Virus genome (UHGV): UHGV-0420230
DNA length: 42,537 bases
Direction: 5' to 3' (one strand)
Origin: a virus
Part shown: positions 29,511 through 33,317 of the stretch, piece after piece
Numbering within the stretch: position 1 is the stretch's first letter
Layout of the letters: each line of letters opens with the position of its first letter
The notes under the pieces: generated by a model
Database searches by the model: none
What the model was told of the DNA's origin: nothing
Seen by the model: the letters and a program-made list of their open reading frames with translations, nothing else
Translations under genes and position numbers: made by a program

Positions 29511-29756
29511 ATGACTTTTGATGAAAAAGAACTTGATAATGCAATTAATAAAATCATCGTAACGTCGCTCTTTTCCTGTCTCAGCGACACTCAGCAGAAA
29601 CAGTTCTACGAATCGGCTTTCAACATGATCGAGCGTTGTTGTTTCTGCGATGCCGACGAGCTACCTGAAAAAATCAGGAAACAGTTGGCTGATGCTCTTC
29701 GAGTGCGACTTTCTGACCAATTTTCTGAAATGTACTCTCCGAATTTGGACAAATAG
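29511..29756 (+). CDS. hypothetical protein (plus-strand gene embedded in the leftward operon)
   Basis: 81 aa; AAGGA RBS 8 nt upstream; hairpin just after the stop. Confidence 0.45.
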   Translation: MTFDEKELDNAINKIIVTSLFSCLSDTQQKQFYESAFNMIERCCFCDADELPEKIRKQLADALRVRLSDQFSEMYSPNLDK

Positions 29757-29949
29757 AAAAAGGCCATTTCCATTCAGGGTCTGATGGAAATACTTCAGCC
29801 TGTTCCAAAGCACGGCGTAAAGAGAATACAACTCCAGCCATAATCTGATGTTTCCCATTGGTCCAGCTATCGCCGCTCTGATCTACAGGAGCGGCTATGT
29901 CGTATGACCAAACGACTTCACCACTATTGTTTAAAATCTGGACTTTCAT
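29674..29949 (-). pseudogene. duplicated 5' copy (first 59 codons) of the downstream zinc-finger gene with a different, possibly non-functional C-terminus
   Basis: Start, RBS and 59 codons lie within the 198-bp perfect repeat; the divergent C-terminal 32 codons overlap the convergent plus-strand ORF. Confidence 0.35.
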
Positions 29950-29970
29950 TTTGTTCTTTAACCTCCAGAT
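29773..29970. repeat. 198-bp perfect direct repeat, copy 1
   Basis: Identical to 30162-30359 (offset 389 bp), verified base by base. Confidence 0.9.
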
Positions 29971-30338
29971 TTCCGCGCATCTAAAGGCGCATTCTCATTT
30001 GGTGTGAACTGAATAGTTGTGCTGATATTGATTAATGCCTCGACACTCAAGACTACGCACTCAGAGCAGATAGCAACTTCATCTTTTCCGCCTTTGGCGA
30101 TGATTTTTTTTGCCTGCAGCTCGTTTGCGCCACAAAACGAGCATGTGAAATAACGGTTCATTTCAGGGTCTGATGGAAATACTTCAGCCTGTTCCAAAGC
30201 ACGGCGTAAAGAGAATACAACTCCAGCCATAATCTGATGTTTCCCATTGGTCCAGCTATCGCCGCTCTGATCTACAGGAGCGGCTATGTCGTATGACCAA
30301 ACGACTTCACCACTATTGTTTAAAATCTGGACTTTCAT
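29958..30338 (-). CDS. protein with C-terminal ClpX-type C4 zinc finger
   Basis: FTCSFCGANELQAKKIIAKGGKDEVAICSECV resembles the ClpX N-terminal zinc-binding domain; GGAGG RBS; first gene after pL. Confidence 0.65.
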   Translation of the reverse strand: MKVQILNNSGEVVWSYDIAAPVDQSGDSWTNGKHQIMAGVVFSLRRALEQAEVFPSDPEMNRYFTCSFCGANELQAKKIIAKGGKDEVAICSECVVLSVEALINISTTIQFTPNENAPLDARKSGG

Positions 30339-30359
30339 TTTGTTCTTTAACCTCCAGAT
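30162..30359. repeat. 198-bp perfect direct repeat, copy 2
   Basis: Identical to 29773-29970. Confidence 0.9.
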
Positions 30360-30456
30360 ACGGGCGTTTAATGGCCCCGCCGAACAGCTCTTTTCCGCAA
30401 TAGCTGCAATGTCTTTCGCGCATCAGCCTGCGCATTCACCACAACTCTAAAAACAA

Positions 30457-30509
30457 ATGTAGGATATCCAACATGTGAGTGTCAAGAGTTTATGTTGGTT
30501 ATCATACAT
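30457..30509 (-). promoter_or_regulatory. OL-type operator sites and leftward early promoter (pL-like)
   Basis: 18-bp palindromes ATGTAGGATATCCAACAT (30457-30474) and ATGTTGGTTATCATACAT (30492-30509); minus-strand TTGACA (plus 30480-30485) with 17-bp spacer. Confidence 0.55.
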
Positions 30510-30523
30510 AAAAAGATAGGCTC

Positions 30524-30551
30524 ATAAAAAAACCGGGGATACCCCGGTTTT
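30524..30551 (-). terminator. rho-independent terminator downstream of the repressor gene
   Basis: Hairpin AACCGGGG-ATA-CCCCGGTT with a 7-T run on the minus strand. Confidence 0.7.
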
Positions 30552-30571
30552 GCGATAGTGAGGAAGATGTG

Positions 30572-31225
30572 TCAAAAATCCATTATTACTTGTTTGACAA
30601 GACCAACTATTCTGCAGTTCTCACCGCATTCAATAGTTTTATAGTTAGGATTTAGTGGGACGAGATACCTGTTCGGCCAGTCCTCAACAAATTTTTTGAG
30701 TGTCGCTTCTTGCCCACCATTGATATGGGCAACAACGATTTTTCCGTTAATACACTCTGTATCAATAATATCTGGCTCTACGATAACGATAGAACCTTCT
30801 GGTATCGATGGTGAGCCGAGGGGATTGGTCATTGAATCACCACGGACCCGTAGTGCAAATGCCATTTCTGATACAAGGGCGGTAGTATAAACCCACTCTT
30901 CAGCATCTTCTTTCCTGACACCAGGCTCCGTCATTGTCCATGAACCCGCCTGAACCCACGAGATGAGGGGGACTTTTTTAACTGCGAATATTTCAGGTTT
31001 TAGATTTATCTTTGGTTCAGGCGAGCCTTTTCCGCTAACAAGCCACAGAGGATCGCATTTAAGTGCGTTGGCTAGGGCTTGAAGGTTGGCTCCATTTGGT
31101 TGGTAGTCGTCCTTTTCCCATCCAGTAACCGTGACACGGTTCACACCAGTCAAATCAGCCAGTGCTTGTTGTGTCAGGTTCAGTTCTTTTCGCCTTTGGC
31201 GAATACGATCACTCATGTTCATCAT
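30572..31225 (-). CDS. CI-like repressor (HTH plus S24 LexA-like peptidase domain)
   Basis: N-terminal HTH (LTQQALADLTGVNRVTVTGWE); C-terminal RGDSM...K motif of self-cleaving repressors; divergent from the Cro-like gene. Confidence 0.85.
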   Translation of the reverse strand: MMNMSDRIRQRRKELNLTQQALADLTGVNRVTVTGWEKDDYQPNGANLQALANALKCDPLWLVSGKGSPEPKINLKPEIFAVKKVPLISWVQAGSWTMTEPGVRKEDAEEWVYTTALVSEMAFALRVRGDSMTNPLGSPSIPEGSIVIVEPDIIDTECINGKIVVAHINGGQEATLKKFVEDWPNRYLVPLNPNYKTIECGENCRIVGLVKQVIMDF

Positions 31226-31288
31226 GTAGGCAATCCTACCACATGCCCATGTAGGATTCTTGACATTGGTATGTTGGATATCCTACAT
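31224..31288 (+). promoter_or_regulatory. OR-type tripartite operator with rightward early promoter (pR-like)
   Basis: Three related palindromes at 31224-31241, 31248-31265 and 31271-31288 (the last exactly the reverse complement of OL1), spaced 23-24 bp; TTGACA 31260-31265. Confidence 0.6.
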
Positions 31289-31320
31289 TTCTGCTTAACG
31301 TAATTTAACGGGAGACAGAA

Positions 31321-31518
31321 ATGCGGAAATCCGACGTGATTAATTATTTCGGCGGAGTTTGTAAAACCGCCGAAGCCCTAGGTATTAAGCATCCGTCTGT
31401 TTCAGAGTGGCCTGAGATTATTCCTGAAGGCCGAGCGTACCAGTTAGAAAAAATTACTAACGGGAAACTGAAAGTTGACGTGTCTTTATATCAAAAGACT
31501 AACAGTGCTGCGGCATAA
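31321..31518 (+). CDS. Cro-like regulator
   Basis: 65 aa small HTH protein divergent from the repressor; GGGAGA RBS. Confidence 0.7.
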   Translation: MRKSDVINYFGGVCKTAEALGIKHPSVSEWPEIIPEGRAYQLEKITNGKLKVDVSLYQKTNSAAA

Positions 31519-31545: not shown

Positions 31546-32130
31546 GTGGGTAAAGAACCTGAATGGAAAGTTGATAAACAACCAGCATGGCTGGTGGCAG
31601 CAATACGAAGAACGATTGCTGATTTACCTCATGGCTATGAGGAAGCAGCAGAAATTCTTGGTTTGTATAAATCTGATGATATCACCCCAGCAAAAGATCA
31701 ATTGCATAACAGACTGCGTAGCGGTGGGGATCAAATTTTTCCACTTGAGTGGGCCATGGTTTTACAGGATGCCAGTGGTACCAGGCATGTAACAGATGCA
31801 ATAGCCCGTCGTAGTAATGGGGTGTTTGTGCCGCTGGTGGTCATTGATGACATTGACAATGGTGACATTAATCAGCGGCTGATGGAGTCAATAGAATGGA
31901 TTGGCAAGCATTCCCGGTACTTACGCAAGGCAACTGCTGATGGAGTTATTGACCAAGCTGAGCGTGAGCAAATCGAAGAGAACAGCTACCAAGTAATGGC
32001 GAAGTGGCAGGAGCATTTAACACTGTTATTTCGTGTTTTTTGTGCGCCGGAAAAGAGTAACGCCCGCGAGTGTGCAGCTCCGGGCGTCGTGGCGTCGATT
32101 GCTTCTGGTTGTGGAGAAACTAACGCATGA
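31546..32130 (+). CDS. YmfL/CII-like early regulatory protein (hypothetical)
   Basis: 194 aa following Cro; GTG start with GAGGAA RBS; assignment by position and size only. Confidence 0.5.
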
Positions 32131-32465
32131 ACAGTTTAACAACACACTACCGTCGCTCGCAACTGATTGCGCTTCCTGTACCGGGTGGAAAAGCGAAGGT
32201 GGAGTATTGCTATGCAGTGAATGTACCAGGTGACAGGGAAATTGTAACCCACAGCTTTGCAGAGTGGGCTGTGGGTGATTTCAACCGGCAGAAGGAGACA
32301 GTCCTTTGCAACAAGTTAACCGCTGGTTCAAAGATCACTACGGAGTGCCCGTCAGAGTCATTCGTTGGGAGCCGGAAACACAACGGGTTATCTACCTCCG
32401 TGAAGGCTATGAACATGAATGCTTCAGTCCGCTCGAACAGTTTCGTCGTAAATTCAGGGAAATAG
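32127..32465 (+). CDS. hypothetical protein (YmfM-like by size and position)
   Basis: 112 aa; ATGA overlap with upstream gene; 3' half overlaps an alternative frame. Confidence 0.4.
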
Positions 32466-32497
32466 AGGTCGGTCATGAGCAAACCAGTAATGATTGA
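32306..32497 (+). CDS. hypothetical protein, TTG start (alternative overlapping frame)
   Basis: AGGAG at 32293-32297 precedes TTG 32306; product more protein-like than the overlapping frame; stop overlaps the Rha start. Confidence 0.4.
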
Positions 32498-33317
32498 TTC
32501 TGATAATTCTGAGCGTTATATTGTTCTGGCAGCGGCAAAATCCGTTGCCGGGATTGGCGTCCCGGAATTTTCCACAGCGCACAACCGCGCTAAAGCGGTT
32601 TTTTTGTGTGCAATGCACGGCTACATCCAGATTATGGTGGGCCGGGCAGGGGCATCGAAAGATGCGCCGGTATCTGTGGAAGCCGGTTACGCCAACCCTG
32701 TTCGGTTCACCACCAGTCAGATTGGCGTCTGTGGTGGTGATTGTCCAAATCATTCCACAGGGGCTGTCGTGATGACTACTATCCCAACCCTCGCACAACC
32801 TGAAATTACGGTTATCAACGGCCTGGCCGTTACTTCTTCCCTAGCTATTGCCGACTACTTCGCCAAGCGTCATGACGATGTACTGAAAAAGATCCGCACG
32901 CTTGAATGCTCAGCATCATTCACTGCCCGCAATTTTTCGGTGAGTGATTACACTGATTGCACAGGTCGCAAACTTCCTTGCTACCAAATCACACGCGACG
33001 GTTTTGCGTTTCTTGCTATGGGTTTCACGGGTAAACGTGCTGCCCAGTTCAAAGAGGCATACATCAATGCCTTTAACCAGATGGAGAAACAGCTTTCAAA
33101 GCCCTCTGTACCGAGCGACGTTGCACATAACGCCAGCGTTCTCTGTTCCTACATTTCATCAATTCATCAGGTCTGGTTGCAGCAGCTTTATCCCATGCTG
33201 GAAAAAGCTGAATCACCGCTGGCTGTAAGTCTGTATGACCGAATTAACGATGCGGCATTTCTTGCCCGTCTTATTCATTCGTCGCTGAACTCTTCAGAGG
33301 TAAGGGGGCGCAAATGA
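32475..33317 (+). CDS. Rha-family phage regulatory protein
   Basis: ITVINGLAVTSSLAIADYFAKRHDDVLKKIRTL...ITRDGFAFLAMGFTGKRAAQFKEAYINAFNQME resembles the Rha domain. Confidence 0.7.
   Translation: MSKPVMIDSDNSERYIVLAAAKSVAGIGVPEFSTAHNRAKAVFLCAMHGYIQIMVGRAGASKDAPVSVEAGYANPVRFTTSQIGVCGGDCPNHSTGAVVMTTIPTLAQPEITVINGLAVTSSLAIADYFAKRHDDVLKKIRTLECSASFTARNFSVSDYTDCTGRKLPCYQITRDGFAFLAMGFTGKRAAQFKEAYINAFNQMEKQLSKPSVPSDVAHNASVLCSYISSIHQVWLQQLYPMLEKAESPLAVSLYDRINDAAFLARLIHSSLNSSEVRGRK

Follow-up and report, generated by a model that had tools for sequence, protein, structure and literature searches.

The closest described systems to the switch treated here are immC of phage P22 (c2, cro, OL and OR) and the near-identical immunity region of phage 21. 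The P22 operator consensus, ATTTAAGATATCTTAAAT, has been described as drawn from six natural operators (PMC5175364). Val33 of the P22 repressor C2 packs against the methyl groups of TTAA, and the central four base pairs are left uncontacted (PMC5175364, PMC4267663). A change at position 3, which is contacted, abolishes specific binding in P22 (PMC4267663). A P22-like phage and phage 21 (imm21) both encode the recognition helix GVSNVAISQWE and have operators close to ATTTAAGATATCTTAAAT, with spacings of 23, 25 and 35 bp. The -10 hexamer of P22, TAAATT, is made up of the outer bases of O1. In phage lambda, cI and cro likewise diverge around a three-part OR, with OL beyond cI, and the C-terminal domain of lambda CI is an S24 domain with a VQAG Ala-Gly site and a Ser/Lys dyad, all of which is shared by the locus described below.

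This locus lies in a window of 42,537 nucleotides (the whole stretch of DNA that was analyzed), which represents an SfV/SfIV-like myovirus whose early region is of lambdoid type, and which is nearly identical to Escherichia phage vB_EcoM-720R4. We put the probability at roughly 90% that 30457-31288 holds a classic CI/Cro switch, serving a temperate SfV/SfIV-like E. coli myovirus as its central immunity region (immC). The initial annotation had proposed a CI/Cro immunity region, and all computable predictions of this reading held, further weight being lent by an operator footprint in five relatives and by co-variation of recognition helix and operator in the aligned sequences. That the switch is of the P22/21 type had gone unnoticed.

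Organization of the immunity region

In the manner of a lambdoid immC, the region combines a repressor made up of a helix-turn-helix (HTH) and an S24 domain with Ala-Gly, Ser and Lys residues in place, a divergent cro gene, and dyad-symmetric operators that are repeated at OR and OL and overlap pR and pL (Table 1). The cI product matched the Pfam families HTH_3 (1e-15) and Peptidase_S24 (4e-25). When compared with the PDB, its C-terminal part matched lambda CI (7e-25) and its N-terminal part the DNA-binding domain of P22 C2 (1ADR, 4.5e-14). The residues connected to self-cleavage, i.e. Ala-Gly (in VQAG), Ser (in GDSM) and Lys (in LKK), were invariant in an alignment of the relatives, P22 C2 and lambda CI, and the Ala-Gly pair corresponds to the lambda Ala111-Gly112 site. 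The cI and cro genes are situated on opposite strands, 95 bp apart, and the divergence of a CI-like HTH and S24 repressor from Cro, as originally described, is borne out, with Pfam matches to HTH_3, Peptidase_S24 and P22_Cro.

Table 1. Positions of operators, promoters, genes and a hairpin in and next to the immunity region. Positions refer to the window; for operators, the strand is that of the sequence given.
Feature	Position	Strand	Sequence or composition	Remarks
pL	30456..30485	-	TTGACA 30485..30480, 18-nt spacer, TACATT 30461..30456	10/12 matches in promoter scan
OL1	30457-30474	+	ATGTAGGATATCCAACAT	1 mismatch to a perfect palindrome; overlaps pL -10; kept in 6/6 lineages
OL2	30492-30509	+	ATGTTGGTTATCATACAT	3 mismatches; upstream of pL -35; 35 bp from OL1
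Hairpin	30529..30551	-	AAAACCGGGG-ATA-CCCCGGTTTT and T-run	perfect 10-bp inverted repeat, between cI end and OL
cI repressor	30572-31225	-	217 aa	N-terminal HTH (recognition helix NRVTVTGW), C-terminal S24 autopeptidase
OR3	31224-31241	+	ATGTAGGCAATCCTACCA	4 mismatches; overlaps cI ATG and putative pRM -10
Putative pRM extended -10	31233..31241	-	TGgTAGGAT	read from sequence; its end precedes the A (31225) of the cI ATG by 7 nt
OR2	31249-31266	+	ATGTAGGATTCTTGACAT	5 mismatches; one half-site good, the other half holds pR -35
pR	31260-31289	+	TTGACA 31260-31265, 18-nt spacer, TACATT	10/12 matches in promoter scan
OR1	31271-31288	+	ATGTTGGATATCCTACAT	1 mismatch; overlaps pR -10
cro	31321-31518	+	65 aa	Pfam P22_Cro 7.6e-22; 47% identical to Cro of P22-like phage
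CII-like YmfL-type regulator	31546-32130	+		next pR-operon gene; Pfam Phage_CP76 9e-07; PHROG 101 (CII-like activator) 5e-62

The 18-bp palindrome that had been reported at OL, with its exact reverse complement at OR, was found at both places, as OL1 and OR1. By allowing up to three mismatches to the ideal palindrome, ATGTAGGATATCCTACAT, we obtained three matches in the 42.5-kb window, all of them inside the immunity region, while 100 dinucleotide-preserving shuffles gave no match, i.e. none are expected by chance. At up to five mismatches the number of matches rose to seven, five of which were located within the 832-bp region. Altogether, three operators were detectable at OR and two at OL, the latter to be compared with the six natural operators behind the P22 consensus (PMC5175364). 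A third OL site was sought between OL2 and the hairpin (30510-30531), but this stretch holds only the weak half-site-like AGATAGGCT, which is not conserved in the relatives, and no such site is claimed here. OR2 is a poor palindrome.

Measured from start to start, OR1 and OR2 are 22 bp apart and OR2 and OR3 25 bp, with 35 bp between the two OL sites; the spacing of 23-24 bp given earlier for the degenerate copies thus had to be replaced. Furthermore, each site had been described as overlapping a TTGACA-N17 promoter. The TTGACA hexamers are indeed present at pL and pR, but a 17-nt spacer would yield the poor -10 hexamer CTACAT, whereas 18 nt yields TACATT. Moreover, only OL1, OR1 and OR2 overlap either of these promoters, while OR3 overlaps the initiation codon of cI, and OL2 is placed on the upstream side of the pL -35. 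The two ends of the region, OL1 with pL on one side and OR1 with pR on the other, belong to an inverted repeat of 40 nt that is 83% complementary.

The putative pRM was not called by the consensus promoter scan. In its region, all of the six lineages that were compared (see below) have retained CCTACATG and TAGGAT, and five of them the TG. Probably, the hairpin downstream of cI is a terminator that ends the cI transcript before OL is reached. Its stem differs in sequence between the lineages (L002 and L005-L008), but pairing is maintained in every case, with a run of T residues after it, and this compensatory change is consistent with a functional intrinsic terminator, even though the scan tool did not call one at 30529-30551. 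A scan against Rfam gave no RNA element within the immunity region itself.

Downstream of cro, the pR operon continues (31546-32465) with homologs of two genes of the cryptic prophage e14, ymfL (CII-like, CP76 family) and ymfM. The latter is annotated as a cell division inhibitor in K-12, and phage induction may therefore cause filamentation. The order of an S24 repressor gene, a small Cro-like gene, ymfL and ymfM is shared with e14 of E. coli K-12 (ymfK-ymfT-ymfL-ymfM). YmfK was nevertheless rejected as the nearest relative of the repressor, as its C-terminal domain alone could be aligned (35% identity), the N-terminal domain and the intergenic repeats being unrelated.

Further along, at 32475-33317, follows what looks like an RNA-controlled antirepressor module of the P1 immI or Gifsy-1 IsrK type, inserted between ymfM and the replication gene in the pR operon. 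Here, a 280-aa ORF has a 5' 'Ash' part that contains isrK (32529-32605) and C4 (32630-32717) in tandem, and a C-terminal part that is a Rha/anti-repressor domain. A promoter-like site (32494-32522) immediately precedes isrK, which holds a terminator-like hairpin (32583-32600) in its 3' part. Possibly, the long 'Ash' frame is not a genuine one.

Conservation and predicted recognition specificity of the operators

Six lineages were compared, namely this window, phage mEp390 and prophages of Trabulsiella guamensis, Enterobacter soli, Pantoea brenneri and Erwinia tracheiphila, with repressors that are 60-90% identical. The loci of the relatives, i.e. the phage and the four prophages, were each taken with 2.5-kb flanks, and in every one of them the motif was found solely next to cI, with cro co-inherited at each locus. 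In the alignment of OR from the six lineages, column identity amounted to 94% for OR1, 88% for OR2 and 94% for OR3, as compared to 58% and 48% for the two spacers and 53% for the cro leader. Set against the spacers, the operator columns are a clear phylogenetic footprint of functional sites, with the reservation that OR2 contains the pR -35, which accounts for some of its conservation. Each of the six lineages has the sites spaced by 22, 25-26 and 35 bp, and the order at OL, i.e. hairpin with T-run, OL2, TTGACAC (the -35) and OL1, is also kept, with the TTGACAC of pL unchanged throughout. OL2 is a weak site and is barely recognizable in Trabulsiella. The half-site consensus is ATGT(A/T)GGAT, in which G3, T4 and G7 were invariant in all 48 half-sites outside OR2.

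In mEp390 (NC_019721), the gene order (cro, OR, cI, terminator, OL), the recognition helix (GVNRVTVTGWE), the operator family and the spacing are the same as in the window, and OR3 is identical (TGGTAGGATTGCCTACAT). The differences concern the proteins, with 60.5% identity for the repressor and 58% for Cro, and several half-sites, which read GTAAGAT instead of GTAGGAT. A literature search on mEp390 returned nothing about its immunity. The Erwinia tracheiphila homolog of cI (L008, 2501-3147) has three stop codons in the matched frame and is probably a pseudogene; the OR and OL operators and cro of this locus are still intact.

Judged by its sequence, the immunity region is a P22/21-type switch, as opposed to one of lambda-type layout, with an operator specificity of its own. 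[quoted passage not shown] OR3 lies directly against the ATG of the repressor gene, and the -10 hexamer (here TACATT) is supplied by the end of O1; the 18-bp operators of the P22-like phage UAB_Phi20 and lambda imm21 are placed likewise. The N-terminal domain of the repressor is homologous to that of P22 C2, and Cro belongs to P22_Cro. Lambda, by contrast, has 17-bp operators of another sequence, a CI whose N-terminal domain is poorly alignable with the one found here, a Cro of another fold family, and rexAB between cI and OL, where the present locus has the terminator alone. Certain features also set the locus apart from P22/21: no antiterminator gene of the N/gene-24 type was seen next to pL, and the CII-like protein belongs to the YmfL/CP76 type.

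The main departure from P22/21 lies in the recognition elements. While P22 and phage 21 have the half-site ATTTAAG and the helix SNVAISQW, the present group combines ATGT(A/T)GG with NRVTVTGW, and the helix GVNRVTVTGWE is found in all five of its intact members. The consensus ATGTAGGATATCCTACAT departs from that of P22 at two symmetric pairs of positions only, 3/16 and 6/13, where P22 has T and A, respectively, and the operators described here have G at both. The P22/21 repressor is 44-45% identical overall to this cI product. From P22 to the latter, Asn32 is changed to Arg, Gln37 to Gly and Glu44 to Gln, whereas Val33 and Asn46 are kept. The new arginine in the helix may read one of the new operator guanines. 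Considering the effect of position 3 in P22 (PMC4267663), the G found at this position predicts heteroimmunity to P22, i.e. P22 C2 should not recognize the sites.

A third case is the repressor of phage vB_EcoM-689R6 (L012), which is 41% identical and has the helix GVSDVAVGYWE. Its operators read AACTAAG-N4-CTTAG in the same 18-bp frame, and are repeated at approximately 600-690 and 1320-1400 of L012. By the same kind of comparison, this phage represents a further specificity class of the P22-like family. A comparison of half-sites with other immunity groups, as recommended in the initial annotation, separates the present operators both from P22/21 (at positions 3 and 6) and from 689R6. In these alignments, operator sequence co-varies with the recognition helix over three groups of P22-related repressors that share one architecture. 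The SEN22 and Oslo repressors (36-38% identical) were also tried for co-variation but turned out to be uninformative, having an HTH and operators of another type.

We incline, with some caution, to the view that the cassette constitutes a third DNA-recognition specificity in the P22/21 family, forming a natural series with P22/21 and 689R6 in which the frame and the valine are kept while positions 3 and 6 and the helix are re-paired, and that it controls Stx1 and Stx2c prophages in non-O157 STEC. If so, the pairing of operator and repressor would set which Stx phages are co-repressed or cross-immune.

Proposed operation of the switch and alternative readings

Following the paradigm of P22 and lambda, a CI dimer would bind the 18-bp two-fold symmetric operators via its helix-turn-helix. 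CI at OR1 and OR2 would then block pR, and CI at OL1 and OL2 would block pL, while the overlap of OR3 with the cI start codon and the weak pRM would allow negative autoregulation. With pRM placed as in Table 1, cI would be expressed from a leaderless, lambda-like transcript. The P22-type Cro, expressed from pR, would bind the same sites with the opposite order of preference. Upon DNA damage, RecA filaments would stimulate self-cleavage of CI at Ala93-Gly94 by the Ser131/Lys dyad, parting the DNA-binding domain from the dimerization domain, whereby pR and pL would open. The Stx1 phage Lys8385Vzw, whose cassette is 99.7% identical, was obtained by mitomycin C induction (PMC7946995), which supports SOS induction indirectly without establishing CI cleavage as the trigger.

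The step most open to another interpretation is the last one. The switch could be as described but with induction mainly via the antirepressor (the Rha/Ash-type gene at 32475-33317; compare Gifsy, P22 and P1 immI) instead of RecA-stimulated self-cleavage of CI. This route has in its favor that isrK (78.7 bits) and a C4 antisense RNA (77.8 bits) are found directly before or within the 5' part of the Ash and Rha ORF, that this ORF matches anti-repressor PHROGs, and that isrK is preceded by the promoter-like site and contains the terminator-like hairpin described above. Nevertheless, we consider it unlikely, for CI retains every self-cleavage residue, invariant in all relatives, and the near-identical phage 720R4 has the same immunity region without any Rha module, its replication gene O following directly after ymfM. 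In addition, as the module is situated within the pR operon, CI would keep it silent in a lysogen unless it has a promoter of its own.

The identity of the palindromes as operators is much less exposed. It might be argued that the 18-mers are kept merely as duplicated pL and pR promoter modules (-10 and -35) and not as protein-binding operators, since the 40-nt inverted repeat of OL1/pL and OR1/pR includes the promoter hexamers and the pR -35 is located within OR2. This is very improbable in view of the geometry, which copies that of the experimentally defined P22 operators (PMC5175364). OR3 and OL2 are both situated outside pL and pR and yet share the conserved half-site, and the two-fold symmetry spans bases without any promoter role. 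Lastly, the idea that the palindromes are SOS boxes through which host LexA represses the phage directly, as might be suggested by the TGT...ACA ends of the sites and the RefSeq name 'LexA family' for the repressor, can be dismissed almost entirely, as the LexA box of E. coli has the form CTGT-N8-ACAG (16 bp) and the geometry of the sites found here, ATGT-N10-ACAT (18 bp), rules out such boxes, as the invariant internal G3, T4 and G7 are not required by LexA, and as the HTH repressor of the phage itself has a recognition helix that co-varies with the site.

Distribution of the cassette and sequences flanking pL

The CI/Cro immunity cassette is already present in many deposited genomes. At 99.5-99.9% identity it was found in 720R4, SKA5, the Stx1 phage Lys8385Vzw and three Stx2c phages, and at 99% identity or more in 140 out of 5426 complete E. 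coli genomes (approximately 2.6%). In the examined records the annotation goes no further than 'repressor protein cI' or 'LexA family protein', and no operator annotation was seen in them. A search of the full-text literature with the operator sequence returned only unrelated primers. What is new is the predicted operator specificity within a known type of switch, and no new mechanism is revealed. With the half-site ATGT(A/T)GGAT and the operator layout, an immunity group is defined that includes Stx1- and Stx2c-converting phages, and this definition predicts which prophages are homoimmune and how the induction of toxin phages is gated. It also adds a natural variant to the P22 repressor-operator system, which could be used for helix swaps and specificity experiments.

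Two further observations concern the sequence just downstream of pL. A 203-nt direct repeat (29768-29970 and 30157-30359), with 99% identity between the copies and a period of 389 bp, has led to a second copy of the 59 codons at the 5' end of the first sizeable gene of the pL operon. Of the two repeat-bearing ORFs, the one at 29958-30338 (126 aa) has a ClpX-type C4 zinc finger at its end, while the one at 29674-29949 (91 aa) has a different C-terminus. Only a single copy of the repeat unit is found in 720R4. The second observation is an 86-bp stretch (30360-30445) that is approximately 98% identical in otherwise unrelated phages, i.e. P1-like phages (at the 3' end of plp, beside tRNA genes), mEp460, Stx2a phages and Klebsiella phages. 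A 40-codon ORF with the half zinc-finger motif CSYCGK overlaps this stretch, which may be either a mosaic joint or a small conserved element.
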